Positions 2,490-53,319 of a DNA stretch of 54,718 nt are shown here, piece by piece. The first letter of the stretch is position 1; each line of letters starts with the position of its first letter. The notes under the pieces are model-generated. The model ran no database searches. It was given only the letters and a program-made list of their open reading frames with translations, and was not told where the DNA came from. Position numbers and translations under genes: made by a program. This DNA is from a virus (taxonomy: Duplodnaviria > Caudoviricetes): positions 1 through 54,718 of IMG/VR virus record IMGVR_UViG_3300042535_000010; one strand, 5' to 3'.

Positions 2490-2504
2490 TGCTACACTAG
2501 GGAC
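2490..2504 (+). promoter_or_regulatory. Extended -10 leaderless promoter
   Basis: TGC-TACACT-N6-ATG(2505). Confidence 0.7.
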
Positions 2505-2855
2505 ATGAACGAGTTACTATCAACCGTTAGGGCCGCGATCAAGAACCTGCAGCAGCTCGAGGCCGCGCTGACGCAGCCCGTACTGGACCCGCTTCCTCTC
2601 CCTCTGTCGTCCGCCGCTGCCGCCTTGGTCGGGACAGAGATGCTAGCCCAGGCCATCTTGGCCCTCGACCCTCCCGACGTGCTGCGCATGCGGGAGCTAG
2701 CGGCACACATGGACCTGCCGCATCCCCAGTCGAGCCGAATGCTGGGCAAGGCACTACGCCGACTACAGTACGCGCGCGTGCACACAGGCGTTGAGCGTAT
2801 CTGGGTCCTACGCGGTGCACAGGTGTCCGAGCCTAAGCGCTGGGTCAGGGAGTAA
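2505..2855 (+). CDS. Stand-alone homologue of the primase-helicase C-terminal (winged-helix-like) domain
   Basis: SRMLGKALRRLQYARVHTGVERIWV vs ARKIGKVMSRLGWRRVHTGTARVWL at end of 26525-29041. Confidence 0.7.
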   Translation: MNELLSTVRAAIKNLQQLEAALTQPVLDPLPLPLSSAAAALVGTEMLAQAILALDPPDVLRMRELAAHMDLPHPQSSRMLGKALRRLQYARVHTGVERIWVLRGAQVSEPKRWVRE

Positions 2856-2866
2856 GGTCAGACGTG

Positions 2867-2881
2867 TGCTAGACTAGGCGC
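2867..2881 (+). promoter_or_regulatory. Extended -10 leaderless promoter of tape measure gene
   Basis: TGC-TAGACT-N6-ATG(2882). Confidence 0.75.
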
Positions 2882-4378
2882 ATGACCGTGATTTCCGAGC
2901 TCGTCTCGATTCTGACCCTGAAAACGGATAAGTCGAGTTTCAAGGAAGGTGAGACACAACTCACCAACTTTGCGCGCACGGCCCAAGCTGCGATCGGGTT
3001 CGACCTGTTCGGCAAGCTGAGCTCGAGTCTCCTGTCCTACGTGGAGCAGGCGGACCAGCTCGACGACACGTCCAAGGCCCTGGGCATCAGCGCGCAGCAG
3101 CTGCAGGCGCTCGGGTACGCGGCCAAGCTGAGCGGGTCCGACGTCAATGACATGATCGGGGCCTTGGGCCGGCTCAACAACGAGGTCGGCGCAGCGGCCG
3201 CGGGCGTGGGCGCGCAGACGGTCTTGTTCGCCAAGCTGGGCGTGGACGTATCCAAGGGCATGAAGCCCATGGCCGAGCTCCTGCCCGAGATCGCGGACGG
3301 GATCAGCAAGCTCCCGACGCACGCCGAGCGCGCGGCAGCGACCGTGCAGTTGTTCGGGCGCGGGGCTCGCGCCCTCGTCCCGTTCCTCGAGCAGGGGCGC
3401 GAGGGCATCAAGGCCCTGACCGACGAGTTCGAAGCGCTAGGCGGCGGCTTCACCGACGAGTTCATCGAGCGCGCGGCCAAGGTGCAGGACGAGCTCGATC
3501 GCGTGCACTACATTCAGCAGCGGGTCGCGAGCACGATGCTGTCCTCGGTCTTGCCGCCGTTCACGACCTTCCTGCAGGTGGCAGAGAAGGGCACGAACGC
3601 GACCATGAAGATGCTCGAGGGCACCGAGTTCCTGGGCGCTGCGCTCGCCACCACGACGGCGCTCGCGCTCGCTCAGGCCGCGGCCTTGGGCTTGTCCTCG
3701 AGCAAGGTCGGGCAGTTCATGCGGCTTGGCGCGGCCTTGGGCGTGGTCGCCCTGGCGGCAGACGACGTCAAGAGCTTCCTCGAGGGCGGGGACTCGGCCT
3801 TGGGCCAGATGCTGGAGCGCGCTGGTCTGATGAAGACTGCCATGGCCCTGGTCAAGGACGAGGTCGCGGGCCTGGACGAGCTCTTGAACCCCAAGAACAC
3901 GAACAAAAAGAGCTGGTTCGAGGATATCAAGGAGCAGAACATCGAGATCGGGCGCGCGATGCAGGAGCAGGTCAGGCTCCAGCGCGAGGTCGAGAAGCTG
4001 CGCGCGCAAGGCGGAGGCGCGGACTACTTCAAGGCTCTCAAGGCGCTAGAGGACGCGGACAAGCGCGTGCGCTACCTGCAGGCGAGCCCCGACGACAGGA
4101 ACGCGTTCACGGGCGACGCAGGGCGCCTGCAGCGCGCGAACAAGCGCGGGCTCGACGCCGAGGTGCAACAGCGCGTCTACGGGCGCGTGGGTGCGGACGT
4201 GCTACAGACCGAGGCCGGGGCAACCGGCGTGTCCTCGGTCCTGAACATGAACATCGAGAAGATCGAGGCCAATGACCCGGCCGACATGGCGCGGCAGATG
4301 AAGAACATCGCCAAGGACGCGCACGCTCAGCAGACCGAGGAGCTCCGGCGCGGGCTGGCGGGCAGGGTCAGGCCCTAG
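2882..4378 (+). CDS. Tail tape measure protein (short, 498 aa)
   Basis: N-terminal VISELVSILTL; Ala-rich helical TMP core (LGISAQQLQALGYAAKLSG, LFGRGARALVPFL); hydrophobic segment. Confidence 0.85.
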   Translation: MTVISELVSILTLKTDKSSFKEGETQLTNFARTAQAAIGFDLFGKLSSSLLSYVEQADQLDDTSKALGISAQQLQALGYAAKLSGSDVNDMIGALGRLNNEVGAAAAGVGAQTVLFAKLGVDVSKGMKPMAELLPEIADGISKLPTHAERAAATVQLFGRGARALVPFLEQGREGIKALTDEFEALGGGFTDEFIERAAKVQDELDRVHYIQQRVASTMLSSVLPPFTTFLQVAEKGTNATMKMLEGTEFLGAALATTTALALAQAAALGLSSSKVGQFMRLGAALGVVALAADDVKSFLEGGDSALGQMLERAGLMKTAMALVKDEVAGLDELLNPKNTNKKSWFEDIKEQNIEIGRAMQEQVRLQREVEKLRAQGGGADYFKALKALEDADKRVRYLQASPDDRNAFTGDAGRLQRANKRGLDAEVQQRVYGRVGADVLQTEAGATGVSSVLNMNIEKIEANDPADMARQMKNIAKDAHAQQTEELRRGLAGRVRP

Positions 4379-4644
4379 AGCGTGTCAATGCGAGCGCGCA
4401 CGTCCGAGATGAAAGCCTCAAAGGCGGCGTCGACCAGGTGTGCGCGTGTGGGCATGGCTGCCACCACGGCCGTGCTAGTAGTATAGCGCAGGGTCTCGTG
4501 AGCTAGCGCGCACGTGCCTGCGATCTTGGTCTTGATCCCGGCGAGCGCGAGAGGCGCAGCGGCCTTAGCCTCGGGCTTGGTCGAGCCTGTGTAGAGGGCC
4601 TGTGCGCAGCGCGTGAGGAGGGTCGAGTATTCGCCTGCGGTCAT
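4375..4644 (-). CDS. Hypothetical protein (MTAGEYSTLL...)
   Basis: Convergent with TMP; TGC-TACATC-N7-ATG upstream on minus strand. Confidence 0.55.
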   Translation of the reverse strand: MTAGEYSTLLTRCAQALYTGSTKPEAKAAAPLALAGIKTKIAGTCALAHETLRYTTSTAVVAAMPTRAHLVDAAFEAFISDVRARIDTL

Positions 4645-4728
4645 GTGCCTAGATGTAGCACAAACCTTGCAGAAGTGAAATGGCCTTTCGCCTTGCACAG
4701 GCAGCGCGAGCCGGGCCATGCTCTAGAC

Positions 4729-5471: not shown

Positions 5472-5727
5472 CCGTGTACGGCGGCCCCTGACAAATCGAA
5501 GCCCTCGCCCTAAAGCCTGGCCGCGACCGTCCGTACTCCTGGGCATGTTCAAGCAGTCCACCACGAACACCGCCCTTGAGATCGCGCTCCTGGCCATTGC
5601 CGAGGGTGCGAGCCCGGAGATGGCCGAGATCGCGGCAGCGGACCGCGTCGCGCCCACGTTCGTGTCGGGCGAGGACTACCAGGGCGAGGATCTGTTCGGC
5701 GACCTGGCCGCGTGATATCCTGCCTAC

Positions 5728-5979
5728 ATGGCAGACTATTTCGTGTTCAACCGTACCAATCCCCAACCCAGCACACACCGGGCAGGCGTGCGCATCTCGA
5801 CCGGAGCCGCTGACGAGGTCTCGGACGTGGTCACCAAGTACGCCGCGACTCACCCCGTGGCTGCTGGCGACGTGCTCGAGGTCGTGAGCGCGGGCTCGTT
5901 CCAGGCGCGCACCGCCGCGGCAACGATCTCGTTCTCGCCCGCGAGCCCCGCTACCGTGCTCCCTCCCGTAGGCTCCTGA
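5728..5979 (+). CDS. Hypothetical protein, probably late/virion
   Basis: TGA-TATCCT-N6-ATG promoter motif; virion-like composition. Confidence 0.6.
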   Translation: MADYFVFNRTNPQPSTHRAGVRISTGAADEVSDVVTKYAATHPVAAGDVLEVVSAGSFQARTAAATISFSPASPATVLPPVGS

Positions 5980-6040
5980 CCCTGCCGCGCGCCTGGCCTT
6001 CCTGTGGCCCGGCTAAAGCGCGAGCATGCTACACTAGGCC

Positions 6041-6790
6041 ATGGCCACGAAGCTGACCTGGGGTAGTTTCTTTCTCACCTTTGATGCAGTCCTGCGCGAG
6101 GTGCATACACTGAACCAGGAAGTGACCGAGCATCCGGTAGAGCAGGGCGCCGCGCTTGTGGATCACATCCGGCCGCTTCCGCTCGAGATCGCGCTCGAGG
6201 GCGTGATCAGCAACTCGCCCGTGTACCTGCCCCTGGATCATGCCGACGGCGTGAGCTGGCAGGCGCGCGAGGTCGAGGTCGAGCCCCAGACTCTGGCGGA
6301 TATCGTCGCGCGCAACCGGGGCTCGGCCGGAGTGTCCGGGGCATTCAACCCGATCGCGTCCCAGCTCGCGGCCTCGGCGGCGCAGCTCATCACGATACCC
6401 GGTCCCAAGGGGCGCGTATACGGCCCGAGCCAGCCCCTACAGAGAGAGCAGGCGGTCTACGCGACCCTGTCCGACCTGCGAGGCAAGGGCGAGCTCCTGA
6501 CCCTGTACACCGGCCTGGCCACGATCGAGCGGCTCGCGCTCGCGAGCGTGACGTGCTCGCGCGACGCCAGCGGAGGACTGCAGATCCAGATGACCCTGCG
6601 GCAGGTGCGCCTGGCCACGGTCGACGCCTTGCCCGAGACCAAGCCCCTGGTGACGGTCAAGGCCGCGCCGAAGAAGCGCGTGGCGGCGACCGAGAAAGCG
6701 CCCGAGGCCACGAACCGGGCGAGCCTGGGCTTCAAGGTCGGGGACAAGGCCGGGGCCTGGTCGCACAAGGGCGAGCTGGTCACGGATTGA
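6041..6790 (+). CDS. Tail tube initiator / baseplate (Dit-like) protein
   Basis: FDAVLREVH...VTEHPVEQGAALVDH motif typical of the gene after TMP in this myovirus type; TGC-TACACT-N5-ATG. Confidence 0.8.
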   Translation: MATKLTWGSFFLTFDAVLREVHTLNQEVTEHPVEQGAALVDHIRPLPLEIALEGVISNSPVYLPLDHADGVSWQAREVEVEPQTLADIVARNRGSAGVSGAFNPIASQLAASAAQLITIPGPKGRVYGPSQPLQREQAVYATLSDLRGKGELLTLYTGLATIERLALASVTCSRDASGGLQIQMTLRQVRLATVDALPETKPLVTVKAAPKKRVAATEKAPEATNRASLGFKVGDKAGAWSHKGELVTD

Positions 6791-6949: not shown

Positions 6950-6983
6950 ACCCCGACCATACCCCGCGTGCTAGACTAGCGCA

Positions 6984-7319
6984 ATGGCCAAAACGTTCGA
7001 TCTGTACCCCGAGCCTACCCGGATCAGGATCCTGGCCGGCACGACGCTTCGGTTGAACTGTCGGCCTAAATACGATACGGGCGCACAGGTCGACCTGACC
7101 TCGGCCACGTTCGAGACCTCGATTTTCGCCCGGACCGGGACGGCCCCGGCCGTGACCACGTTCGCCACCTCGCTCCTGAGCGACGGTCGTGTGCAGCTCG
7201 CCCTCACCGCGGCCGAGACCGACTTGATCCCCGGCTCGTGGGGGATATCGGCCACGGCGACGATCGGCTCGGTCGTGTTCGCGCTCCTGCGCGGCGACCT
7301 GACAGTGGTGGAACCATGA
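6984..7319 (+). CDS. Virion beta-sandwich (BppU-like) fibre adaptor
   Basis: VDLTSATF...[14 protein letters not shown]...LLRGDLTV pattern; ATGA-coupled to collagen-like fibre; TGC-TAGACT-N6-ATG. Confidence 0.6.
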
Positions 7320-8434: not shown

Positions 8435-9857
8435 GCCTCGACCTGACACAGCGTCAGTCCACTGCTTAGTATCCGGATCGGGCTCACCACTAGCCAGCCG
8501 TGGCCGTTGACCAGGTACGCGCGCGCGTCCTCGTGTGTGCCGCACGCAGCTAGGGCGTGCATGCGCGTCAGCGCGATGTAGACGAACGACATGGTAATAG
8601 CTCGGGATACATGAGAGTGAACGCGTCCTCGTCTGTGTGATCGAAGTAGGCCTCGATCTCGCCATCGGCCCAGGCGGCCCATAAGACACGACATGGTGGT
8701 AGGACATCAGCCCAGCTTCTCCAGCCATCGTAGGGTCGGCCACCGATGTTTTGCACGTACATCTCGAACGCTTCTTTTCCGGTCATGGTTTAGTCCTAAC
8801 ACGAGATTCGGGGGTGCAGCAAGGACACTCCCGCGTACATGCGACCAGAAGCCAGCCTAAGGGCAGGCCAAAGAGAGCCCACGCCTCTGGCGCGCCGAGT
8901 AGACAGCCCAAGAACGCGGCAGGGCAGGCGAGCAGACACAAGAGCCCGATCAGGCCCATGCGCCCGTTTGACAAGTATCCGACAAGTAGGCAAACGCCTG
9001 CCATTATCATGGTGTCGCCTCGTGCAGTGCCTTGAGGTATCGCTGCACTAGCGCGTCGAATACCTCATCCGAGATCTCGCGCAGACCCGCGCGGTACGCG
9101 GCCTCGTGATACTGAATCAGTTCGCGCATTGCCTCTAAGGATTCCGCAGGCTTACGCCGTGGTTGTTTCATGGCTTGAGCCTCCATCGGGTCTTGACCCA
9201 GGGCCCAGGATGATCCTTCTCCCAGCCCGGGAATGGGGTGGTCCATCGTTCGTAGAGCGTGCTCCAGAACTGGACCGCGATCCCCTGCGCGACCAGGCTC
9301 CGGGCCTGGGTCACGCTGAAGCCGATCGCCATCGTCGGGATCGTGTCCCGGACGTAGTTCTTGCAGTCACGCGCGCCTCGGCAGGCAAAGCCCGTGAACA
9401 AGGGCTCGCCCTCGCCGCCGCAGAGTGGACACTTCATACGGCCCCGCACATTCTGGCCAGCGCCAAGACAAGGAGCACGAACACCAGCGCGCCGAGCGTG
9501 AAGTCAAACGAGGTCATACTGCCCCCTGCAGAGTCTCGACCATGGCCTTGAGCTCGGCCTCGGCGGCGCGCTTGGCAGCCGCCGCAGTCGTGTAGCCCAT
9601 CGAGAGCCAGACCGTGGTACCGCGCACCTGCGCGTACGCGACCCAGAGCGTGCTCGACCCCTGCGGGTGCACACGGGCTGCATCCCCTAGCAGCCACCAC
9701 TGTCCGGCTCGTTTCCATTTCTTGCTTAGCATCTCGACACCGCCTGCTTGTGGTTCTCGGCCAGCTCGCGCCGCCATCCCGCGCCGTGGCGGCGGATCAC
9801 GATCTCTCGCCACGCGGCGAGCGCGGCGACCAGGAGACAGGTCTCAGAATAGGTCAT
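8431..9857 (-). other. Minus-strand chain of small overlapping accessory ORFs (incl. 8568-8786, membrane ORF 8783-9010, ligase-N-like ORF ending 9007, CxxC ORF ending 9168)
   Basis: Successive stop/start overlaps downstream of the pentapeptide gene; starts uncertain. Confidence 0.6.
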
Positions 9858-10537
9858 CGGTATTCCTCCGCCTCGACGCGGGTCATAAAGAAATGTATGC
9901 CATGCGTACACTCGACCCTGATGTCGTCGTCGAACTTGTCCGCGGTCACCACAGATCCCACCGCACTATAGTCCAGTTCACCCTTCGTAGGTGACTTACC
10001 ACCCGCATCCATCACAATCACGTGGCTCGCGCGGCACTTACGCCCGACAAGCGAGCTTGTGCGGACTGCGTCTGCGGGGACCTGCACCCGGATAACACCT
10101 GTCGTGGTTTTCTTCCACGCCACGAACTCGCCCTCGCTCGGCACGATCTGAAAGTGCGGCAACTTCGCTCCAGTGAGGTTCGCGCCGCTGAGGTTCGCGC
10201 CGCTGGGGTTCGCGCCGCTGAGGTTCGCGCCGCTGAGGTTCGCGCCGCTGAGGTCCGCGCTGCGGAGGTTCGCGCTGCGGAGGTTCGCGCTGCGGAGGTC
10301 CGCGCCGCTGAGGCTCGCGCCGCTGAGGCTCGCGCCGCTGAGGCTCGCGCTGCGGAGGTCCGCGCTGCGGAGGTCCGCGCTGCGGAGGTCCGCGCTGCGG
10401 AGGTCCGCGCCGCTGAGGTCCGCGCTGCGGAGGGCCGCGCCGCTGAGGGCCGCGCCGATGAGGGCCGCGCCGCGGAGGTTTTCGGTCGGGATCGTGAGAA
10501 GTACAACACCCTGGTGATTTCTGATTTCGACAGGCAT
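9854..10537 (-). CDS. Pentapeptide repeat protein with DUF5758-like C-terminal domain
   Basis: About 20 A(D/N/S/A)L(S/R)(G/S) repeats, then GEFVAWKK...GRKCRAS...[18 protein letters not shown]. Confidence 0.9.
10174..10478. repeat. 15-bp tandem repeats encoding pentapeptides
   Basis: GAGGTTCGCGCCGCT / GAGGTCCGCGCTGCG units. Confidence 0.95.
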
Positions 10538-10590
10538 GCCCTAGTTCTGCCGCACGGCCTGGTCCCAGTCAACGTGCTATACTCCGATTC

Positions 10591-10905
10591 ATGCTCGTGA
10601 TCCCCACACCGGAGCTGACCGACTACCAGGACCTGTACGAGGTCGAGGCCAGGCTCGGGAGCAATGACTACCTCCTGCGCCTGGCCTGGGACGGCTCTCG
10701 CTGGTTCATTGACGTGCTCCTTAGCGACACGCTGGAGCCCCTGACCGAGGGCGCGCCCCTGACCCTGTGGCGTCCCGTGCTGGTCTACTGCACGCACGCC
10801 AGCCGCCCTGCGGGCGAGATCATGCTCATCTCCTCGACCGAGGACACGACCGAGGCTCAGCGCGCCGACCTAGGCGCACGCTGTGTGCTGGTGTATGTTG
10901 CCTGA
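10591..10905 (+). CDS. Baseplate plug-type small protein
   Basis: YEVEARLG..DYLLRLAW...WFIDV...DLG..CVLVYV; precedes hub; TGC-TATACT-N7-ATG. Confidence 0.7.
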   Translation: MLVIPTPELTDYQDLYEVEARLGSNDYLLRLAWDGSRWFIDVLLSDTLEPLTEGAPLTLWRPVLVYCTHASRPAGEIMLISSTEDTTEAQRADLGARCVLVYVA

Positions 10906-11707
10906 GCGCTCTATCTCACTCCACATCGGGGGCCTGATCGCGAACGAGCTCGACTGCACGTTCTCGGTCCAGGCCGACCTGTCGGATAAGCCCAACGTCG
11001 CGAGCATCCAGGTGTTTGGCGCGAGCGAGGCCACGCGCGCGGCATGGAGCGCGAGCGCGGCCGGGGTCGAGGTCCGGCTGCAGGCCGGGTACCGGGGCCA
11101 GAAGCTGGCCGATATCTTTCGCGGAAAGCTGCGTGATATCAATCACAAGCACGAGCACGCGGAGTGGGTCACGACCATCAGCTCTGGTGATGGCGACGAG
11201 GCGAGCGCCACGGTGGCCTTCAATCTGAGCCAGGGGTCGAGCATCCAGGCCGCAGTCGCGCGCGTCGCGCGAGACCTGAACCTGGCCACCAAGGACAACA
11301 AGACCCTGGCCGGGATCACGCTCGCGAATGGGGCCGCGCTGTTCGGTAAGTCCATGTCCGAGCTCGGGCGCATCACCGCTCAGTACGGCATGCGCCCGAC
11401 CATCCAGAGCGGCGAGCTGGTGGTCGTGCAGGACGGCAAGGCGCTGCCGGGTCGCTTCGTGGACGTCACGACCGGGCTCGTGGGCGCGCCCGAGGTCACG
11501 ACCACGGCTGTGAGCGTGAAGGGCCAGCCCCAGAAAAAGAAGCAGCGCCAGCTCAAGATCACGCACCTCATGACCGCCGACATCCGGCCAGGTTACCTGC
11601 TTGAGGTCGGGACCGAAGGCAGGTGGCTCGTCAAGCAGGTGACCTGGAGCGGGAGCACGTTCGGGAATGACTGGTATGTCACGGCCCTCTGCGTGCCCCC
11701 GGTCTAG
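10895..11707 (+). CDS. Baseplate hub protein
   Basis: PNVASIQVF...LQAGY...IFRG...SGDG; TGLVGAP; GSTFGNDWY. Confidence 0.85.
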   Translation: MLPERSISLHIGGLIANELDCTFSVQADLSDKPNVASIQVFGASEATRAAWSASAAGVEVRLQAGYRGQKLADIFRGKLRDINHKHEHAEWVTTISSGDGDEASATVAFNLSQGSSIQAAVARVARDLNLATKDNKTLAGITLANGAALFGKSMSELGRITAQYGMRPTIQSGELVVVQDGKALPGRFVDVTTGLVGAPEVTTTAVSVKGQPQKKKQRQLKITHLMTADIRPGYLLEVGTEGRWLVKQVTWSGSTFGNDWYVTALCVPPV

Positions 11708-11985
11708 AGCGAGGTCAGGTGAGCCAGCTCAGCCTTGCGTATGGCGTGCGCCTCTGGGCGAGCATACCAGCGAGCGCGTTCTGCGATCAGGTGACCATGG
11801 TGGAAAGCATCTACACAACCCTCTGTCGTGTGTCCGCGCTTGTCGACGCGCGCGTAAGGGTCACACGCGCGGCGTGCGCACGTGGGGCAGTGCGTGCCCG
11901 GATTCCCCGCTGCGGCGCGGATTGCGTTGATCTTGGCCGAAACCGAGGCTTGTTGCGTCGCCGGAACTTTGCGTGCGTTGCTCAT
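11704..11985 (-). CDS. Hypothetical zinc-binding protein
   Basis: CPTC...GCVDAFH; TTGCGC-N17-CATGAT-N6-ATG promoter. Confidence 0.65.
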   Translation of the reverse strand: MSNARKVPATQQASVSAKINAIRAAAGNPGTHCPTCARRACDPYARVDKRGHTTEGCVDAFHHGHLIAERARWYARPEAHAIRKAELAHLTSL

Positions 11986-11996
11986 ACCCAGATCAT

Positions 11997-12033
11997 GAAC
12001 GCGGCCGGTCGATCGCGCAAACCGGCCGCGTTC
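11997..12033. terminator. 13-bp perfect inverted repeat (terminator or operator hairpin)
   Basis: GAACGCGGCCGGT-N11-ACCGGCCGCGTTC followed by GTTTT on + strand. Confidence 0.6.
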
Positions 12034-12039
12034 GTTTTG

Positions 12040-12510
12040 TCAGTACAGGTCGGTCTCTGCGTACCAGATCCAAGAGTGCTTGACCCAGCACCGTTTCCCG
12101 CCGTCGTAGCTGAACGTGCGCAGGTCACCCGCAAGCAGCGGACCCAGCGCGACGTTCGAGACGATGGTCTTGTTCTCGACCCAGATCACACCGCGGCCTG
12201 TGTAGGGGTCCACCCGTGACGTGTATGTGAACCAGCCCGGGACCCTGCAGCGGGCGCACGCCCAGCCGCCCGTGCACTGGCGCCCGTAGTAGTCGATCCC
12301 GTAGGTGCAGTCAGAGGTCTCGCCTACGAAGCACTTGAGTGCGTTCAGCGTGTCGTAGCCACGAGTCTTCAGCGTGGGCCAGGTCATGGCTCCAGAGAGC
12401 GCCTCTACGCGCGCTGTCACGCCCCCGTCCTCATCCCCCGTATCAGGCGCGCGCGGCTCGGTGTCCAGTGAGCACGCGGTCAGTAGCACACACAAAAATA
12501 GATGTCGCAT
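12040..12510 (-). CDS. Cys-rich lipoprotein
   Basis: Signal peptide with lipobox LTAC; GGAGG upstream; acidic linker. Confidence 0.75.
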   Translation of the reverse strand: MRHLFLCVLLTACSLDTEPRAPDTGDEDGGVTARVEALSGAMTWPTLKTRGYDTLNALKCFVGETSDCTYGIDYYGRQCTGGWACARCRVPGWFTYTSRVDPYTGRGVIWVENKTIVSNVALGPLLAGDLRTFSYDGGKRCWVKHSWIWYAETDLY

Positions 12511-13815: not shown

Positions 13816-13818
13816 GGT

Positions 13819-14511: not shown

Positions 14512-14530
14512 GTGCTAGGCTTAGCACATG
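14509..14530. promoter_or_regulatory. Palindromic bidirectional leaderless promoter
   Basis: CATGTGCTA-GGCT-TAGCACATG spans both divergent start codons (14511 minus, 14528 plus). Confidence 0.7.
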
Positions 14531-15208: not shown

Positions 15209-15228
15209 CGACGTGGTATACTTGACGC

Positions 15229-41410: not shown

Positions 41411-41436
41411 CCTATTCAGGGTGCTAGACCAAGTGT

Positions 41437-43003: not shown

Positions 43004-43491
43004 AAGCCTGTAAGCACAGCCAAGTTCCGTGCGCGAAATGTCTGGCGCGACGCCAGTACATGCGCGACTGGAAGGCAGCGAACACCACTCCGGAGAAGAA
43101 AAATCGCTGGGCGGAGGCCGAGGCGCGACGATACCAGGCACGTAAGGACGATCCAGAGTTTCGGGAGTATGTGCGTACTGCCCAGAAACGCAGATACCGG
43201 GAGAACAAGCACGTCCGCGATGCGTCCCGCGCCCAGCAGCTCCGAGCTAAGTTTGGCTTGACACCGGAGCAGGTAGAGGCGATGGCAGAGACGCAGGGTC
43301 AGGCATGCGCATCGTGTGCGCGTCCGTTCAAGACGCCTAAACAACGACATGTAGACCACTGTCACACTACAGGAAAGGTCCGAGGCCTACTGTGTCATGG
43401 CTGCAACACGGGGATCGGATTGTTCCGTGAAGACCCGGACGCACTCCGCGCCGCGATTCAATACCTCGACCGCCACCGGACTTCAGGCTAG
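43000..43491 (+). CDS. Endonuclease VII-family endonuclease, copy 1
   Basis: CASC..HVDHCHTTGKVRGLLCHGCN.GIG. Confidence 0.9.
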   Translation: MKACKHSQVPCAKCLARRQYMRDWKAANTTPEKKNRWAEAEARRYQARKDDPEFREYVRTAQKRRYRENKHVRDASRAQQLRAKFGLTPEQVEAMAETQGQACASCARPFKTPKQRHVDHCHTTGKVRGLLCHGCNTGIGLFREDPDALRAAIQYLDRHRTSG

Positions 43492-43503
43492 GATACATAC
43501 ATC

Positions 43504-45102
43504 ATGAGCATCCTCAAGGACATCAAGACCGCGATCAAGACCGCCGAAGCGCGCTATGACGGCTGGTGGGCCGCGAGCACCGGCCTGGGCGGGACCGCGC
43601 GCCGCGCTGCGTGGCAGCCCGAGTGCTTGGTCTCGCCGGAGGAAGCGTTCTCCTTGTATCATAACAACGACTTGGCCCGGACCATCATCGAGGCCCCGGT
43701 CGAGGCCGCGCTCCGGCAAGGCTGGCACGTAGAGACCGGAGACGCGGACGCAGACAAGCTTTGGCGCGCCAAGGTCGAGGCACTGAACCTGGACGAGCTG
43801 CTAACCAAGGCACTTGTCTATGGGCGAACATGCGGCGGCGGCGGCCTGATCCTCGGGCTTGCGGGCTCGGGAGAGGACATGAGCCAGCCCTCGCCGAAGG
43901 GCGGCGAGCTAAGGAACCTCACGCCCTGGGACCGGCGCCAGGCCACGATCACGAAACATGTCACGGACCCGAACAGCCCGAGCTACGGACTGCCCGAGCT
44001 CGTGCAGCTCCAGCTCGCTGGCCGTGCGTCCCTGACCCTGGTGCACAGAGACCGCCTGGTCCTGTTCGGGGGCGCGCGCACGGGCGAGCAGGAGCGACAG
44101 ATCAATAACTGGTGGGACTACAGCGTCCTGCAGCCAGTCAAGTCCGTGCTCGAGGAGATGGGCCTGGGCTGGGCCAGCGCGAGCCTGCTGCTCCAGACCG
44201 CGTCCCAGCCGGTGTACGGCGTCAAGGACCTGGCCGCGATCCTGGCATCGGCCGAGGGCGAGGAGCGCCTGAGCGCGCGATTCAAGATCATCGCCATGAT
44301 GCGCAGCGTCGCCAAGGCCATGGTGATCGACGCGGACGGCGAGAGCTACACGAACGTGAGTCAGAGCTTCGGCGGCGTGCCCGAGCTGCTGGACCGGCTT
44401 GCGACCCGCGTCGCCGCTGCCGGCCGTATCCCGGTGACGATCCTCATGGGCGAGGCACCGGCCGGACTGAACGCCACGGGCCAGAGCGACCTGGAGACCT
44501 GGTACGCGCAGGCACGCACGATGCAGGCACTGGTCATCCAGCCCGCGATACAGCGCCTGGTGGGGCTCATGGGAGGCGGCGAGGCCGAGGTCTGCATGCA
44601 TGACCCCGACCCCAACCACGCCAGCAAGCAGGCCCAGCTCGCCGCCGTGCGCGCGCAGGCGGACACGGCGTACGTGACGGCGGGGGTGTTCCTCCCGAGC
44701 GAGATCGCGACAGCGCGCACGAGCGGCGAGGAGCCCTACATCCACATTGAGGCGCGCGAGGAAGCTCCGGCCGAGGGCGTGGACCCGATGCAGGAGCAGG
44801 CCGACATCCAGTCCACGGTCCTGAACGGCGCCCAGGTAACGAGCTTGGTCGAGATCGTGACCCAGGTGGCAGCAGGGACGCTACCGCGTGACTCCGCCTC
44901 GGCAATCATCCAGCTCGCCTACCAGGTAGACAAGACACAAGCCGAAGCTATGCTAGGCTCAGCAGGAACCGATGCCTTCACGCCGACGCCCAAGACTCCC
45001 GCCCCTGACCGAGGGCTCGCACGCGACGTACGCCCGGCTCCTGCGGGCGATGATAAGGCGCTGGAAGACGACGGGCCTATGGGCGACTCCGAGCCCGCGT
45101 GA
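43504..45102 (+). CDS. Portal protein (DUF1073-type)
   Basis: NDLARTIIEAP, HRDRL, IPVTILMGEAPAGLNATGQSDLETWY. Confidence 0.92.
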   Translation: MSILKDIKTAIKTAEARYDGWWAASTGLGGTARRAAWQPECLVSPEEAFSLYHNNDLARTIIEAPVEAALRQGWHVETGDADADKLWRAKVEALNLDELLTKALVYGRTCGGGGLILGLAGSGEDMSQPSPKGGELRNLTPWDRRQATITKHVTDPNSPSYGLPELVQLQLAGRASLTLVHRDRLVLFGGARTGEQERQINNWWDYSVLQPVKSVLEEMGLGWASASLLLQTASQPVYGVKDLAAILASAEGEERLSARFKIIAMMRSVAKAMVIDADGESYTNVSQSFGGVPELLDRLATRVAAAGRIPVTILMGEAPAGLNATGQSDLETWYAQARTMQALVIQPAIQRLVGLMGGGEAEVCMHDPDPNHASKQAQLAAVRAQADTAYVTAGVFLPSEIATARTSGEEPYIHIEAREEAPAEGVDPMQEQADIQSTVLNGAQVTSLVEIVTQVAAGTLPRDSASAIIQLAYQVDKTQAEAMLGSAGTDAFTPTPKTPAPDRGLARDVRPAPAGDDKALEDDGPMGDSEPA

Positions 45103-45859
45103 AGCCCTGACCGAGGCCGCGAAGCAGCGCAGCCGGGTGCTCGAGACCTGGCTGCGCGCGCGTGGCGTGCGGCTCGACGCAGCGGACGAAACGCCGGGCG
45201 TCGACGATATCATCCGACAAAACGTATCATTGATCTCGAAGCTGAAGCGGACCACGCAAGCGCAGGTAGCCCGGGTCATCCGCCAGGCCAACGCCGAGGC
45301 CTGGACCAGGGACAAGCTCTCCCGCGCGCTGTCGGACCGGTTCGCGATCGCCGAGCGGCACGCGGTCCTGATCGCGCGCGACCAGATCGGGAAGCTGAAC
45401 GGTGCGATCGTCCAGCGCCGCTCGGAGGAACTCGGGATCAAGGGCTACATCTGGGTCACGAGCGCGGACCAGCGCGTGCGTCCGATACATCGCCGGCTGA
45501 ACAACACGAAGCACACCTGGGACAAGCCCCCTGTTGTGAGCCCGGACGGCCGACACGAGCACCCAGGAGGCGACTTCCAGTGTCGCTGCACAGCCGAGCC
45601 TGACTTGTCCGAGATCCTGGACGAGCCCGCACCTAAACCAGAGCGTGGCCCGCTGCCGGCACCGAAGCCCCCGCGCCCAGCACCGGAGCCCGCACAGCTC
45701 AACGTACGGGTCGAGTCCTGGCCCGATCGCCTGAGCTACGCACGCGGGTATCGCGCGGCGCACGGCGGCGTGTTGCCGGACCATGTGCTCTACGCCCTGG
45801 CTCGGGGCCAGACCGAGATCCCTTTCGATGAGGCTGTGCAGGAGCTACAGAATGTCTAG
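44972..45859 (+). CDS. Minor head morphogenesis protein (Mu gpF / SPP1 gp7-like)
   Basis: LIARDQIGKLN, YIWVTSADQRVRPIH, HPGGDFQCRCTAEP. Confidence 0.9.
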   Translation: MPSRRRPRLPPLTEGSHATYARLLRAMIRRWKTTGLWATPSPREALTEAAKQRSRVLETWLRARGVRLDAADETPGVDDIIRQNVSLISKLKRTTQAQVARVIRQANAEAWTRDKLSRALSDRFAIAERHAVLIARDQIGKLNGAIVQRRSEELGIKGYIWVTSADQRVRPIHRRLNNTKHTWDKPPVVSPDGRHEHPGGDFQCRCTAEPDLSEILDEPAPKPERGPLPAPKPPRPAPEPAQLNVRVESWPDRLSYARGYRAAHGGVLPDHVLYALARGQTEIPFDEAVQELQNV

Positions 45860-46301
45860 AGTCTATCGCCCGTGTGGGCATATTGACGGCGTGTGCGACC
45901 CCTGTAAGCGCGCCCGCAAACGAGAGTATATGCGGCGCTGGAATCAGAATCAGCATGCGAAGGATGCCAAACTCGCATACCGCAATACCCCGGCCCAGCG
46001 AGAACGGAGCAGGGCATGGCACGCATCTCAGGCCCAGCGAGCCGTTCGACTCGGGCGTCGATATCGCGTCCGAGTCTGGTTTCTTGACCTACTCTGGCGC
46101 GCACAGTCTGGACTGTGCGCTATATGCGACAGTACGCTGACGCCGTTCACCCGCGCGGCCATGTGTGTGGATCACGACCACGAGACAGGCGCGGTTCGTG
46201 GCCTGCTGTGTACACGATGTAACACCGGCGTCGGTATGTTTCAGGAGCGACGCGAGAGCCTCGCACGAGCCGCTGACTACCTGGAGAGGTACGGAAAATG
46301 A
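45852..46301 (+). CDS. Endonuclease VII-family endonuclease, copy 2
   Basis: CAIC..VDHDHETGAVRGLLCTRCN.GVG. Confidence 0.9.
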   Translation: MSRVYRPCGHIDGVCDPCKRARKREYMRRWNQNQHAKDAKLAYRNTPAQRERSRAWHASQAQRAVRLGRRYRVRVWFLDLLWRAQSGLCAICDSTLTPFTRAAMCVDHDHETGAVRGLLCTRCNTGVGMFQERRESLARAADYLERYGK

Positions 46302-46768: not shown

Positions 46769-46799
46769 CGAGGTCTAGCGCCAGGGCTAGACCTTAGAC

Positions 46800-47114
46800 A
46801 TGCGAATCAAGATCGAGTGTGAGACCTTCACAGCCGAGACCTCGGACCTGGAGACCGCTAAGGTGCTAATCACCATGGCTTCTCCGAAACCCAGAGTGTC
46901 GGTCCGAGTGACACTCAAGCCCGGCCTAGGCGCTAAGAAGATCTATGCCATCCGTTGCGTGTGTGAGCACACAGGCGCGACCTTAGGCCAGGCTAAGGAG
47001 ATGGTCGAGGCCGGCTGTTTCTCGGCCGTTCTGCTGCCTAATAGGTCCTCGCAGGACCTCGCGCGCGCCCTGTCCCAAGAGGCCGACTATAACGTCGAGC
47101 TGGAGAGCGTATGA
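46800..47114 (+). CDS. Ribosomal protein bL12 (L7/L12) C-terminal-domain-like protein
   Basis: KKIYAIRCVCEHTGATLGQAKEMVE; TTGACG-N17-TAGACC-N6-ATG. Confidence 0.7.
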   Translation: MRIKIECETFTAETSDLETAKVLITMASPKPRVSVRVTLKPGLGAKKIYAIRCVCEHTGATLGQAKEMVEAGCFSAVLLPNRSSQDLARALSQEADYNVELESV

Positions 47115-49391: not shown

Positions 49392-49586
49392 ATGTCAAGG
49401 TGTAAGGGTGTGATACGTTGGTTCAACGGTGTGGCGGGCTACGGCTTTATCGTCTACGAGGGCAAGGACGTGTTCGTCCACCACACGGAGCTCAAGATGT
49501 TCGCGCGTGGCAGCGAGGTGGTCGAGTTCGACCTTCGCGAGGGCCCTAACGGTCTGTTCGCGCTCGAGGTGAGACCATGCCCGTAG
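49392..49586 (+). CDS. Cold-shock domain protein
   Basis: GVIRWFN..GYGFI..DVFVH (RNP1/RNP2). Confidence 0.9.
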   Translation: MSRCKGVIRWFNGVAGYGFIVYEGKDVFVHHTELKMFARGSEVVEFDLREGPNGLFALEVRPCP

Positions 49587-50086
49587 TCCAGCATTTAGCC
49601 AAGAGCGCCGAGTGGGGCACGCCCCAGGACGTGATCGAGGCCGCGCGCGAGACCATGGGCTCGATCACGTTCGACCCGTGCAGCTCGGCCGAGGCCAATC
49701 TGCGGGTCCGTGCCGACAGCTGGAGCGACAACGGCCTGGCTGAGGACTGGACGGGTGAGCGCGTGCTCCTGAACCCGCCAGGTGGTCGGGTCAAGCTCGG
49801 AGGCAAGAAGTACGGCCTGCCCTTCCTCTTCTGGACCAAGCTCCGGGACTCACACGTGCGGGGCTGCGTCTATATCGGGTTCACGCTCGAGCACCTCAGA
49901 CACAATGCGGGCATGATCTCGTTCCCGATCTGTATCCCACACAAGCGCCTATGCTTTCATCCGCTCGCTGGTCAGAATGCACCGTCGCCTGGACACGGGA
50001 ACGCGATCGTGTATATTCCAGGGAGTGAGGACCGGACCTCAGAGTTTCTACGGATATTCAAGGAGTTTGGCGATGTACGAGGATGA
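49577..50086 (+). CDS. Phage-type N6-adenine DNA methyltransferase
   Basis: EWGTP, FDPCSS, NGLAEDW, LLNPPG. Confidence 0.8.
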   Translation: MPVVQHLAKSAEWGTPQDVIEAARETMGSITFDPCSSAEANLRVRADSWSDNGLAEDWTGERVLLNPPGGRVKLGGKKYGLPFLFWTKLRDSHVRGCVYIGFTLEHLRHNAGMISFPICIPHKRLCFHPLAGQNAPSPGHGNAIVYIPGSEDRTSEFLRIFKEFGDVRG

Positions 50087-50637: not shown

Positions 50638-51425
50638 TGTACGAGAATGAGATCAACGCCCTGCTGGGCATGGGTGAAACGAAGCACGAACGTGCGGCCC
50701 TCGACACCGCCATCGCGCTCATGCGCGCGGCTTCGGTTCCGCCCCATGACGAGGCGGCGGAGCTGGCGCACTGCGAACGCACAGCAGACGCTATCCCCGG
50801 TGTGGGCTCCTGGGAAACCCGCATCGCGATCCGAGGAGCTATTCTGGGCCAGCGCGCCGCCGTGCGGGCCAAGTGCGCTGCCGAGCCTACGGACGAGGAC
50901 TTGAAGCGCCACATTCGTGACAAGGACCGCTATCGGGAGTTGCTCGGACGTGCGGAGGCCGAGATCGAGCGGCTGAAGAGCCTCAGCGACGGGCTGGCGC
51001 GGGCGGTGGCCACACTCGTGGCAGACAACTCGACGCTACAGACCGAGTTGACCGAGCTAGCGGCCGAGATCGAGCGGCTGAAGGCGCAGCTGTCGGGTGT
51101 CGGGATGCAAGAGTTCCGGCGTCTGGAAGGGCGCCTGCACAACGCTCAGGACGAGATCGAGCGGCTTCGCGAAGTCTGGCGCCTGGCAGAGAAGCAGGTC
51201 GAGACCCTCTTGCGACAGAAATCCGAGCTCCAAATCGAGATCGAGCGGTTGAAGGCTTCGCGCGCCGGATTTGAGGGCCGCCTTGCCGCAGCGCAGCTGG
51301 AGATCGAGCGGCTGAAGGCGGAGATCAAGCGCCCGGAGGCGGAGCCTGCAGCAGCACACAACCCCTACGATCTATACGATCGTGCAGAGGATGGACGACG
51401 TATACCCCGCACAGGTGGCGAATGA
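50637..51425 (+). CDS. MYE-EI family protein 3 with EIERL coiled-coil repeats
   Basis: MYENEI...ALDTAIALMRAA; five EIERL(K/R) repeats. Confidence 0.8.
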   Translation: MYENEINALLGMGETKHERAALDTAIALMRAASVPPHDEAAELAHCERTADAIPGVGSWETRIAIRGAILGQRAAVRAKCAAEPTDEDLKRHIRDKDRYRELLGRAEAEIERLKSLSDGLARAVATLVADNSTLQTELTELAAEIERLKAQLSGVGMQEFRRLEGRLHNAQDEIERLREVWRLAEKQVETLLRQKSELQIEIERLKASRAGFEGRLAAAQLEIERLKAEIKRPEAEPAAAHNPYDLYDRAEDGRRIPRTGGE

Positions 51426-51885
51426 CCCTCTACACAGCGATCAACCAACCAGGAACCGGCGCGAGCATGCGCCGCGCGCTCAAGGTCTTAGCTAAGGAGT
51501 GGCGGAGACGGGGCGTCCTGCCTGACGTAGAGGCCGAGTTGCACGTGAGGCACCTGCACGCGTGCGTAGACGCATCCCCCGAGGCCCAGCGCGCCCGCCA
51601 AGAGACGCACACCTACCTCGTCCAAAACATGCCCCTGAGTCTGCTCCAAAGACAGCTGACCAAGCTCGGCGCGTGCGAGGAGTCCATCGCCTGGGCGGGG
51701 CAGTTCTCAACCGCACGCCAGGCCTGGGAGGCGTGTGCGGACGAGTTCGAGATGTTGTCGTGGCTGCTACGCTTCGGGGGCGTCCGGCTGCGCGAGGAGG
51801 GCTACTACGCGCTTAGGGGCACTTGCATCAACTCACCCGAGGCCTGCGCAGCCATCCGCCGCGTGGTCCCGTTCGAGCGATTGAG
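51241..51885 (+). repeat. Imperfect direct repeat, copy B
   Basis: See 1-636. Confidence 0.97.
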
Positions 51886-51907
51886 AGAACTGTCGAGGGA
51901 AAAATGA
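51422..51907 (+). CDS. Hypothetical protein, paralogue of 182-658
   Basis: Direct sequence comparison. Confidence 0.8.
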   Translation: MTLYTAINQPGTGASMRRALKVLAKEWRRRGVLPDVEAELHVRHLHACVDASPEAQRARQETHTYLVQNMPLSLLQRQLTKLGACEESIAWAGQFSTARQAWEACADEFEMLSWLLRFGGVRLREEGYYALRGTCINSPEACAAIRRVVPFERLRELSREK

Positions 51908-52239
51908 AAACATACAGCGTAACGTACGCGCCGCCCTGGATGCGGACCCCTTCACCGGGATGGCGTGACATGCTACGTGACCTCATCGATCCCGAGATGT
52001 ACCTGACGTGGCGAGAATGGCGCTACGCCAGGTACGTCGAGAAGTTACGGGGCCGGCGCGCGCTGGAACGGTTTCAGGCGGGTTCACCGGGGCCACGAAA
52101 CGCCCCTGCGCCCGTTGCTCTGCGCTACGCCGACCAGTGGGCGGTCTCGCGGCGGTACACCCCTCCCGATACGACGCACCTGTCAAACCGCCTCCTAGAA
52201 ATTGCCCTTGCGGATGCGCGCGAGTTGAGTCAGAAATAG
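51904..52239 (+). CDS. Hypothetical protein (MKTYSVTY...)
   Basis: ATGA overlap; GAGGG SD. Confidence 0.55.
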   Translation: MKTYSVTYAPPWMRTPSPGWRDMLRDLIDPEMYLTWREWRYARYVEKLRGRRALERFQAGSPGPRNAPAPVALRYADQWAVSRRYTPPDTTHLSNRLLEIALADARELSQK

Positions 52240-52243
52240 TGAC

Positions 52244-53005
52244 ATGGCCGGCTACAAACGACGCCCCCCGCGACTCGACCGCAAGGCTCGGTTCCCCCGC
52301 CGCCCCAAGCTCGAGTCGTCAGAGTGCGCCGTGGGGTACATCCGCGTCTCGACTGACGAGCAGGCCCTCGGCCCCGAGGCCCAGAAGACAGAAATCCTGA
52401 CCTGGTCGGCCGAGAACGACATCCCGATCGCGGCCTGGCACGAGGACCTGGGTGTATCGGGGCGGTCCCCCATGGACCAGCGACCGGCGCTCATGGACGC
52501 CCTGGAGAGCGTCCACAAGAATCACGCGCGGTTCTTGATCGTGGCGGCCCGTGACCGCCTCTCGCGCGACGTGTCCGTGGGGGCCATGCTTGAGTACGAG
52601 TTTTCGCGTAACAAGTGCCGTATTCTGACCGTCCGCGAGGACACCTCCGACGAGACACCCGAGAGTCTGATGATGCGCCGCATGCTGGACGTCATGTCCG
52701 AGTATGAGGTGTCCCTTATTCGCCGCCGCACGAAGGCGGCAATGGCCGCCGCGAAGGCGAACGGAAAACAAGTCGGCCGCCCGGGGATGCTGTCCAGCCA
52801 GTTCGGGCGCGAGATGGTAGCTTTGGTGCATGACCTCTCTGCGGCGGGGTTCCACTCGGCACGGATCTGTAGGTTCATGAACTGGAAGTACGGACGGAGC
52901 CTCTACGGCACTTCTTGGGGGCCGCAGCTCGTGAAGCGCTGCCTCGGGATGCCGCGGCCGCCGGAGTTTCTGGAATTCGCAATAGACAAGGATTGGGAAC
53001 CATGA
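52244..53005 (+). CDS. Small serine recombinase (resolvase/invertase family)
   Basis: GYIRVSTDEQ, DLGVSG, RPAL, DRLSRD, GKQVGRP. Confidence 0.92.
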   Translation: MAGYKRRPPRLDRKARFPRRPKLESSECAVGYIRVSTDEQALGPEAQKTEILTWSAENDIPIAAWHEDLGVSGRSPMDQRPALMDALESVHKNHARFLIVAARDRLSRDVSVGAMLEYEFSRNKCRILTVREDTSDETPESLMMRRMLDVMSEYEVSLIRRRTKAAMAAAKANGKQVGRPGMLSSQFGREMVALVHDLSAAGFHSARICRFMNWKYGRSLYGTSWGPQLVKRCLGMPRPPEFLEFAIDKDWEP

Positions 53006-53073
53006 CTCTAGACGCAGGTTTTTCTAACGGCTCCGGCTTGCGCCCGTGAAGGCCCGGTGCTAGTATTTCTGAC

Positions 53074-53319
53074 ATGGTCAAGTTCGACAAGCTAGCCCTG
53101 GAGATCGTCCCAGAGTACCGCCCCGGCAAGTTCGCCGCGGCCGTGGTGCTCTACCACCGCGGCGCCGAGGTCTACCGCGAGGTCTTCGCCGAGAACCAGA
53201 GGTTCACGCCGCTCATGGCCAAGGTGGTCGAGCAGTGTCGCATCGAAAGTACAAAGATGGCTCGGCACAAGTACGAGGCCGATCCTGTGGAAACTGCCCC
53301 GACAACGAAGGTGGACTAG
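53074..53319 (+). CDS. Hypothetical protein
   Basis: TTGCGC-N17-TAGTAT-N7-ATG promoter. Confidence 0.65.
   Translation: MVKFDKLALEIVPEYRPGKFAAAVVLYHRGAEVYREVFAENQRFTPLMAKVVEQCRIESTKMARHKYEADPVETAPTTKVD

Follow-up and report, generated by a model that had tools for sequence, protein, structure and literature searches.

Leaderless expression, in which transcription begins on the start codon itself, has been documented for genes of the Deinococcus-Thermus group and for phages of Thermus, and thus represents no new code. In Deinococcus deserti, the excerpted report places 47% of the mapped start sites on a start codon, with a -10 box upstream of 94% of these and no conserved -35 element (PMC4007540). 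In D. radiodurans, the motif TANNNT, most often in the form TACACT, is described in the available sections of the source as lying approximately 6-7 bp before roughly a third of the open reading frames (ORFs) and as acting as a -10 box by mutation, its final T being irreplaceable (PMC12340547). Comparable arrangements are known from phages. For Lalka27a, excerpts of the report list 16 predicted late promoters, for half of which small-RNA sequencing showed a start site (bioRxiv 10.64898/2026.04.20.719267), together with mostly leaderless transcripts and few terminators between co-directional genes, as in phiYS40, for which changes in IF2 and IF3 are also reported (bioRxiv 10.64898/2026.04.20.719267; PMC3594737). 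In P23-45, according to the parts of the sources drawn on here, the middle and late promoters count among the extended -10 promoters and the early ones among the -35/-10 type, a phage protein disables -35 recognition (PMC3950348), and gp39 and gp76 bind RNA polymerase (PMC3950348, PMC5758890). Excerpted accounts also cover leaderless transcription in the actinobacterium Mycobacterium (PMC4633059) and leaderless genes across bacteria (PMC3160421). The present analysis deals with the IMG/VR virus record IMGVR_UViG_3300042535_000010, a phage genome of 54,718 bp, classed as linear, whose whole length is called the window below, and with a short element, consisting of TG, one base and TANNNT (TGNTANNNT), that precedes many of its start codons by 5-8 nt. 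Judged from its letters and placement, this element is likely to represent a series of extended -10 promoters for the host polymerase, which would abut the start codons and give rise to leaderless messenger RNAs (mRNAs).

Composition and position of the element

Both strands of the window together hold 44 matches to TGNTANNNT, compared to a mean of 27 and a maximum of 41 in 200 dinucleotide-preserving shuffles, a control that is independent of any gene model. In 17 of the 44 an ATG or GTG follows at 5-8 nt and opens an ORF of at least 70 amino acids (aa), whereas the shuffles averaged 0.56 such cases and never exceeded 3. The window holds about 17 matches more than the shuffle mean, as many as are start-linked. 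The enrichment over shuffled sequence that an initial annotation of this DNA had made its check is therefore present at the expected spacing; the 16 sites listed there were all found at their start codons and were joined by a 17th, before ATG 18008. The distance between box and start codon is 6 nt in nine cases, 7 nt in five, 5 nt in two and 8 nt in one, each of the other gaps within 0-40 nt accounts for 0-2 sites, and five permuted control motifs yielded 0-2 start-linked matches each. At these sites the box is oriented towards its start codon.

The alignment of 19 sites, namely the 17 canonical ones plus two leadered copies, gives the consensus gTGCTA(G/C)ACT, often with AGGC next. The T and G of the extension and the T, A and final T of the hexamer are invariant in all 19, and the middle of the hexamer varies: the canonical sites carry TACACT and TAGACT four times each and TATCCT and TATACT twice each. 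C follows TG in 17 of the 19 aligned sites (as TGC in 15 of the 17 canonical ones) and occupies the fifth hexamer position in 16. No position between -50 and -2 relative to TG exceeds 0.53 bits, that is, no -35 element is conserved in the 19 sites, the exceptions being the sheath site (TTGGCA, 18 nt) and a site internal to the protease gene (TAGACA, 17 nt). The 17 start-linked sites have, with TGN directly before TANNNT and no -35, the build of extended -10 promoters. A position-weight scan of both strands placed 17 of its 20 best matches 5-7 nt before an ORF start, a partly circular result because the matrix was trained on those sites.

The sequence between box and start codon points in the same direction. 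Shine-Dalgarno-like words precede one of the 17 canonical genes compared to 26 of the 59 boxless genes (44%; Fisher p = 0.0035), their rate in random 15-mers being 11.5%. The single word of the canonical set is 4 nt long and part of the hexamer TAGGAT itself; words of at least 5 nt are found before none of the 17 canonical and nine of the 59 boxless genes. The start codons at the canonical sites are 16 ATG and one GTG, preceded at -1 by a pyrimidine in 15 of 17 cases, as in 9 of 9 other -10 sites and 32 of the remaining 59 genes (p = 0.012). Since bacterial transcription start sites prefer a pyrimidine followed by a purine, the pyrimidine at -1 fits initiation at the start codon, and transcription usually begins 6-7 nt past a -10 box. 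Structure at the mRNA 5' end, for which a difference was absent over 30 nt (p = 0.60) and marginal over 45 nt (p = 0.04), was not used.

The same words recur along the plus strand. TGCTACACT stands 6 nt before ATG 2505 of a 116-aa ORF (2490-2507), 5 nt before ATG 6041 of the Dit-like tail protein gene (6027-6043), 6 nt before ATG 20042 of a gene for a 752-aa tail protein (20027-20044) and 7 nt before GTG 35323 of the prohead protease gene (35307-35325). TGCTAGACT is found at a distance of 6 nt before ATG 2882 of the tape measure protein gene (2867-2884), before ATG 6984 of a 111-aa ORF followed by the collagen-like fibre gene (6969-6986), and before ATG 18395 of a gene for a 356-aa fibre-like protein (18380-18397). 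At 6 nt as well are TGATATCCT before ATG 5728 (83-aa ORF; 5713-5730) and TGGTATACT before ATG 15229 (73-aa ORF; 15214-15231); 7 nt separate TGCTAGTAT from ATG 53074 (81-aa ORF; 53058-53076) and TGCTATCCT from ATG 16266 of the baseplate J-like gene (16250-16268), for which a longer ORF from TTG 16212 is possible. TGCTAGCGT, 5 nt before ATG 18008 (17994-18010), lies within the 3' end of the upstream gene. At 18395 the hexamer TAGACT opens with the upstream stop codon TAG (18383-18385), and the same holds for the TAG at 43489-43491 that opens a TAGGAT, both as first described in the initial annotation.

Several sites are arranged back to back with genes of the other strand. TGCTATACT, 7 nt before ATG 10591 of the baseplate plug gene (10575-10593), diverges from the start of a minus-strand pentapeptide-repeat gene at 10537. 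TGCTAGGAT, 8 nt before ATG 19593 of a 103-aa ORF (19576-19595), is back to back with a minus-strand box at 19552-19560; this copy of TGCTAGACT precedes, by 7 nt, ATG 19544 of a 47-aa ORF that overlaps the 3' end of the fibre gene (19542-19560) and may serve a small gene or an antisense transcript. The minus-strand TGCTAGCCT, 6 nt before ATG 26262 (26260-26277), belongs to the PD-(D/E)XK exonuclease gene that heads the helicase operon. A further arrangement is the near-palindrome CATGTGCTAGGCTTAGCACATG at 14509-14530, in which TGCTAGGCT stands 6 nt before ATG 14528 on the plus strand and TGCTAAGCC, a variant with C in the last position, 6 nt before ATG 14511 of a D12 methyltransferase gene on the minus strand. 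The two start codons are 16 bp apart and, because the -10 boxes overlap, the two divergent units might exclude each other.

A rough model of 84 genes, built from codon-usage scores and family matches with starts chosen by hand, was used for the distribution over the genome, a gene being counted as the first of its unit if its upstream neighbour lies on the other strand or at a gap of at least 25 nt. Among the 38 genes of this kind, 13 have a canonical box, four a variant, one a plain -10 box and 20 none, so that some form is present at 18; among the 46 other genes it is present at seven. The tail module stands out, with a box at 9 of the 11 unit-first plus-strand genes between 2505 and 20042, and these 17.6 kb hold 13 of the 17 canonical boxes of the 55-kb genome. 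Only two starts of the small-gene arm are marked, 53074 and, by a variant, 46800, and most of the plus-strand replication operon is nearly devoid of the element. The element is a feature of the virion modules and above all of the tail; an occurrence genome-wide, before almost every gene island, as first claimed, was an overstatement, and what stands of it is the concentration in the tail and baseplate module. Nor need the transcripts be short, as the first description had them, since terminators are scarce. Terminator-like sites are not clearly enriched (15, 13 and 7 compared to 7.6, 9.0 and 7.9 expected), and the sole strong hairpin, with a 14-bp stem at 37948-37979, directly follows the capsid gene, its T-tract running into the variant box before ATG 37999. 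Transcripts therefore probably continue into downstream genes.

Besides the canonical form, variant and leadered forms occur. The TAGACC variants noted earlier at 37999 and 41437 exist and have a third counterpart at 46800, and the three copies of GCTAGACC obtained by the position-weight scan all end 6 nt before an ATG. TGCTAGACC precedes ATG 37999 (box 37984-37992, within 37948-38001) and ATG 41437 of a 58-aa cysteine-rich ORF (41422-41439), and GGCTAGACC precedes ATG 46800 of a 104-aa ORF (46785-46802). A doubtful case is TGCTACCTA, 7 nt before ATG 31855 of an exonuclease gene (31839-31857), where GAGG lies 3 nt before the ATG. TAGACC-type variants may be weak or inactive promoters, perhaps weak because the final T was found essential in D. 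radiodurans, as the excerpted study has it (PMC12340547). The 58-aa ORF at 41437-41613 has CxxC and CC motifs, and its end overlaps the start of the large terminase gene, whose product matches its PHROG profile only from profile position 151. A terminase frameshift was considered from this profile gap and from the ATG at 41437 lying in another frame, and the stretch is now read as a separate ORF, which may encode a small terminase-associated protein or be a frameshift remnant.

The genes of abundant virion proteins were said to differ, and they do. The sheath gene has TTGGCA, 18 nt and TACACT preceded by TG (TGCTACACT, 39626-39634), followed by a 22-nt leader with AGGAG at 39642-39646 and ATG 39657 (39605-39659), and the decoration and major capsid genes lack a -10 box and are preceded by purine-rich leaders. 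A further TGCTAGGCT lies 12 nt before ATG 44972 of the head morphogenesis gene (44951-44974) and would, if used, leave a short leader. The portal gene has TAGGAT, preceded by GGC, 9 nt before ATG 43504 (43489-43506) and so beyond the 5-8 nt spacing, the stop codon that provides its TAG being that of an endonuclease gene. Inside the protease gene, TAGACA, 17 nt and TACACT (after GGC) stand 6 nt before ATG 35860 (35825-35862). This ATG is in frame and gives a 169-aa C-terminal product that shares the stop of the protease gene, and 35825-36369 is a candidate nested scaffold gene with its own promoter in the usual place for one. TACAGT without TG lies 6 nt before ATG 26525 (26513-26527), an alternative start of the primase-helicase gene whose ORF has GTG 26477 as its first start. 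A high-scoring box, TGCTACCCT, at 39053-39061 on the minus strand runs antisense within the neck gene 38653-39084, with no more than a 22-aa ORF behind it, and may be either a chance match or a promoter of antisense transcription.

Related phages and clues to the host

No close relative by DNA was found in the phage collection, and searches of genome, viral and metagenome contigs with the capsid protein brought up nothing close. By capsid and terminase, the most similar phage records are myoviruses of Erwinia, Shewanella and Rhizobium with 30-40% identity; the best portal relative reaches 43%. A portal profile provided 160 loci, 80 from bacterial or archaeal assemblies and 80 from viral contigs. 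In 12 of the 160, TGNTANNNT occurs 5-8 nt before the candidate portal start, and six other 4-nt gap windows, used as control spacings, gave 0, 1, 2, 0, 0 and 0. Related contigs, which the initial annotation had put forward as a further check, show the element again at the portal start, in about 11 independent cases because L086 and L089 are nearly identical contigs. Four relatives reach 37% identity or more, and three of these are among the 12; G+C lies between 59 and 67% in all but one of the 12. The boxes read, for instance, TGCTAGGGT with 6 nt to ATG (L081), TGCTACGCT with 7 nt to ATG (L082), TGCTACACT with 6 nt to ATG (L120) and TGCTACCCT with 7 nt to GTG (L006); the words vary and the skeleton and position are kept, as a functional promoter would show. 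Start-linked boxes reach a density of 0.22-0.44 per kb in L089, L086, L120, L082 and L081, compared to 0.31 per kb in the phage. In a portal tree (FastTree, 115 rows) the phage groups with L081, L083 and L082 with a local support of 97.

Near-whole phage sequence is present in one sediment metagenome, from which the record probably stems, and small parts in freshwater metagenomes. Contigs of four freshwater runs contain short pieces of relatives with 80-95% likeness. One of them matches the phage only from 14509, the edge of a box, onward, which as a single case is a hint of promoter-plus-gene exchange; in a freshwater relative, a pair of indels at 18003 and 18006 preserves the spacing.

The hexamers offer a clue to the host. 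Eight hexamers were counted wherever they occur in the supplementary tables of D. deserti, and the part of these tables covered gives at least 155 TACACT, 116 TAGACT, 72 TATACT and 68 TATCCT, followed by at least 63 TAGGCT, 63 TAGAAT, 46 TACAAT and 23 TATAAT (PMC4007540). TACACT and TAGACT are thus the two commonest of the eight both in these excerpts and at the 17 sites of the phage, and this shared preference hints at a Deinococcus-like host. TGn before the hexamer is found in two of 30 D. deserti promoter rows among those listed, compared to TGC in 15 of 17 phage boxes, and the TGC extension is the phage's own emphasis. As a weak control, being a single metagenome-assembled genome (MAG) of different G+C, an Actinomycetota MAG (281-kb sample, about 73% G+C) was examined. 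It has a leaderless peak of its own (29 sites at gap 6 and 14 at gap 7) with the hexamers TACGGT, TACGCT and TAGGCT; TACACT and TAGACT are not among its 15 commonest, which account for 38 of 43 sites, and the six dinucleotides most often found before the hexamer do not include TG. A Deinococcus-like host is on these grounds our best guess, put forward tentatively, and another high-G+C lineage rich in leaderless genes is possible. The cold-shock protein, searched in a protein atlas, matched mixed phyla. The Candidatus Saccharibacteria label attached to L006 is not reliable for that contig, the contigs of the MAG concerned (G004) having 38-52% G+C compared to 63% in L006, which is probably a phage-like contig mis-binned there. 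The lower-GC contigs of G004 also show TGNTANNNT 6 nt before ORF starts.

Probable leaderless transcription and its alternatives

The explanation best supported by the letters, the spacing, the lack of Shine-Dalgarno words, the pyrimidine at -1 and the relatives is the one originally proposed, a sigma70-type extended -10 promoter with transcription starting at the AUG. Scans of 83 proteins against PHROGs and 68 against Pfam revealed no sigma factor, no RNA polymerase and no known transcription factor; the phage thus appears to have no polymerase or sigma factor of its own among them, and the host enzyme would have to read the promoters. The sigma-A holoenzyme of the host would recognise TG, one base and TANNNT without a -35 element and begin transcription at the first letter of the start codon, the A of ATG. 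Ribosomes can load directly on a 5'-terminal AUG, and a boxed gene, or the first gene of a short run, would be translated from its leaderless mRNA with no need for Shine-Dalgarno pairing. Read-through from each promoter would create nested transcripts, from which a gene with its own box and without a ribosome-binding site would be translated mainly if the transcript starts at its own start site.

Several observations weigh against this interpretation. Twenty of the 38 unit-first genes have no box, the start codons 2505, 16266 and 19593 are not the first possible ones in their ORFs, and the five variant sites have C or A, not T, at hexamer position 6. Classical -35/-10 matches are not enriched (4, 3 and 4 compared to 2.2, 2.3 and 1.8 expected). 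The C after TG and the C at the fifth hexamer position are more constrained than in a generic -10 box, and since TGn is rare in the listed D. deserti rows, the class does not simply reproduce host promoters and may depend on a phage factor. The portal profile found prophage-like relatives in many phyla (Myxococcaceae-labelled MAGs, alphaproteobacteria and others) with at most 34% identity, and no host call could be made from it. L083, the closest long relative (19 kb, 37% portal identity), has one start-linked box among seven matches. On the portal tree, where the phage was scored positive despite having only TAGGAT at 9 nt before its own portal gene, the trait is scattered, with nine changes for 12 rows compared to a mean of 11.6 after shuffling (5 of 500 shuffles were as low). 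Such scatter fits a trait set by the expression machinery of the host and not by phage ancestry, and the dense pattern is therefore no family character. Finally, the runs matching 14000-22500 comprise five DNA metagenome rows and no RNA run.

The alternative that survives best is a phage-specific temporal class, in which a phage protein blocks or remodels -35 recognition and the TG-extended boxes of the virion genes stay active late; we regard it as rather unlikely. It would account for the TGC in 15 of 17 phage boxes compared to two of the 30 listed D. deserti rows, and for the concentration of canonical boxes in virion modules. The early class would be represented by two full -35/-10 promoters of the minus-strand cassette (11.7-14.5 kb), both with leaderless spacing: TTGACA, 16 nt, TAAGGT and 7 nt before ATG 13815 (13813-13850), and TTGACT, 16 nt, TAGGAT and 6 nt before ATG 13241 of a 54-aa ORF (13239-13275). 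They are two of the four genomic copies of TTGAC followed at 17-19 nt by TANNNT, of which 0.73 are expected. There is precedent in P23-45 (PMC3950348) and, as far as the excerpted report goes, in Lalka27a, for which the authors proposed a phage factor on account of a distinct late consensus. Against the temporal class stand the tblastn searches with gp39 and gp76 of P23-45, which found no homologue in the phage (best E-value 0.65), an unrelated protein of the same role being possible, and the lack of any transcription factor family by Pfam or PHROGs. Moreover, the canonical box at 26262 heads a replication operon and not a virion module, and sequence cannot give timing.

That the box is the binding site of a phage DNA-binding protein, an operator or stoperator whose -10 likeness is secondary, is very unlikely. 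Stoperators occur in cluster A mycobacteriophages, and a temperate life style is conceivable given the serine recombinase gene at 52244-53005. The word is, in addition, longer and more uniform than a generic -10 box (gTGCTA(G/C)ACT, often then AGGC), and several copies are partly palindromic, such as GTGCTAGGCTTAGCAC at 14512-14527. On the other hand, the invariant letters are exactly TG and T-12, A-11 and T-7 of a promoter, with a variable hexamer middle; relatives bear other words on the same TGNTANNNT skeleton in the same place; and no repressor-like protein was recognised in the PHROG and Pfam scans. Operator and stoperator arrays have no fixed spacing to starts, and the phage boxes, held at 5-8 nt from the start codon as no operator would need, do not appear to form one.

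An action of the box at the level of RNA, either as a signal for ribosome loading or re-initiation other than Shine-Dalgarno or as a processing site in polycistronic messages, is extremely unlikely. Read-through messages are probable given the near absence of terminators, several boxes lie only 3-26 nt past the upstream gene, and many boxes contain a TAG that, at 6-nt spacing, forms a stop codon in the frame of the ATG. The box also heads the divergent units at 10591, 14528, 19593 and 26262, for which no upstream message in that direction is possible, and this disfavours a purely RNA-level signal. The sheath copy has a separate AGGAG leader after the box, and in D. radiodurans, according to the excerpted study, the box bound the sigma factor and could not be replaced by a ribosome-binding site (PMC12340547). 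A by-product of composition or start-codon choice, conceivable in a 65% G+C genome whose intergenic DNA is richer in A and T than its coding DNA and where three motif-linked starts have an earlier possible start codon in their ORF, has a negligible chance in view of the 17 sites against a shuffle mean of 0.56 in the test free of a gene model, the sharp gap profile and the 12 portal starts against 0-2 at control spacings.

Starting from the host-read extended -10 promoters favoured above, a two-class and entirely leaderless programme can be imagined, although we think it improbable in this full form. A few -35/-10 promoters in accessory cassettes would serve the unmodified host polymerase, a private TGC-extended class before virion genes would be active after a phage protein has disabled -35 recognition, and the promoter of each gene would determine how much protein is made. 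Within the late class, most tail parts may have the full-strength TA(C/G)ACT, low-copy functions such as the terminase a TAGACC weakened by the change from T to C, and the sheath an added -35 and a Shine-Dalgarno leader. The internal box of the protease gene may make the nested scaffold protein, the overlapping divergent boxes at 14509-14530 may be mutually exclusive, and promoter-plus-gene units may be the pieces exchanged between relatives. The benefits suggested in the initial annotation, namely portable gene units, tuned stoichiometry and expression that outlasts stress or host shut-off, are speculative.

If leaderless expression is confirmed, the phage would be a clean and unusually dense case of leaderless expression gene by gene outside the cultured Thermus phages. 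The boxes may also be of practical use. They point to the true start codons, favouring 16266 over 16212 and 26525 over 26477 as well as the internal start 35860; they form a compact natural set of promoter variants of graded form; and for an uncultured virus they could serve as a clue to a host lineage rich in leaderless genes, perhaps Deinococcus-like.

Genome surroundings and known systems

By gene content the record, which is 100% complete by the collection's own estimate, is that of a contractile-tailed phage, about half of its proteins having no match in the PHROG and Pfam scans. No tRNA gene was found in the genome. The tape measure gene (2882), the Dit-like gene (6041), the collagen-like fibre gene (7316), the baseplate plug, hub, wedge and J-like genes (10591-18004) and the genes for the fibre-like protein (18395) and the 752-aa tail protein (20042) are followed by a helicase and exonuclease operon on the minus strand (22256-26262) and by the plus-strand replication operon with primase-helicase, DNA polymerase A and exonucleases (26477-34567). 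Then come the prohead protease (35323), a structural or decoration protein (36394), the major capsid protein (36931), neck proteins, sheath (39657), tube (40952), large terminase (about 41600), portal (43504) and head morphogenesis protein (44972), and a small-gene arm from 45.8 kb to the end of the record that continues through 0-2.2 kb.

A direct repeat of about 640 nt (1-636 and 51241-51885, 94-95% identity), which is not a terminal repeat of the record, duplicates a 158/161-aa ORF (182-658 and 51422-51907) together with its upstream DNA. The first gene of the minus-strand cassette within the tail module (9854-10537) encodes a pentapeptide-repeat protein with a DUF5758 C-terminal domain and contains 19 overlapping repeat copies at 15-nt spacing (10105-10524). 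Approximately 400 nt between the baseplate wedge gene and the box before 16266 (15857-16265) contain no convincing ORF in the rough gene model. Two endonuclease VII-like genes (43000-43491 and 45852-46301) flank the portal and head morphogenesis genes, and the small-gene arm contains an HNH endonuclease gene (53380-54042); the codon usage of all three is atypical for the genome, as expected of homing endonucleases. Two paralogous D12-class N6-adenine DNA methyltransferases of about 230 aa are encoded on opposite strands (13819-14511, minus; 29057-29752, plus), and a Dam-like fragment at 49577-50086. TTAA occurs twice in the whole window compared to 10.9 copies expected from trinucleotide frequencies; CTAG is not unusual (99 compared to 119.5 expected).

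Compared with the systems described at the outset, neither the mode of expression nor its use by a phage is new, both being already in print, and no new mechanism is involved. This phage stands apart by its uniform TGC extension, by how densely the boxes occur in the tail module and by its range of variant forms. P23-45 shares the TG-extended -10 without -35 before later genes, a design by which a phage could turn the host polymerase from promoters that depend on a -35. The phage differs from it in having no gp39 or gp76 homologue and in the much higher density of the element, as only 5 of 39 TGNTANNNT matches in the scanned 45-kb part of P23-45 are near ORF starts by the criterion applied here. 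As in actinobacteria, TANNNT lies 6-7 nt before the start in a high-G+C genome; the hexamers of the sampled Actinomycetota MAG differ. With phiYS40 and Lalka27a the phage has in common many promoters directly before late genes, few terminators and divergent pairs in short intergenic spaces. In Lalka27a, the start site lies on the initiator codon 6 nt after TANNNT, which matches the spacing of the phage boxes. The consensus sequences differ, being TAGGGT with a C at -25 in Lalka27a and TGCTA(G/C)ACT without a conserved upstream base here, and no relation in gene content to either phage was found. The leaderless genes of Deinococcus-Thermus likewise have TANNNT at approximately 6-7 nt from the start codon and lack both a Shine-Dalgarno word and a conserved -35; 15 of the 17 phage boxes carry TGC, compared to TGn in two of the 30 listed D. 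deserti rows, and the phage start sites are predicted from the DNA sequence.

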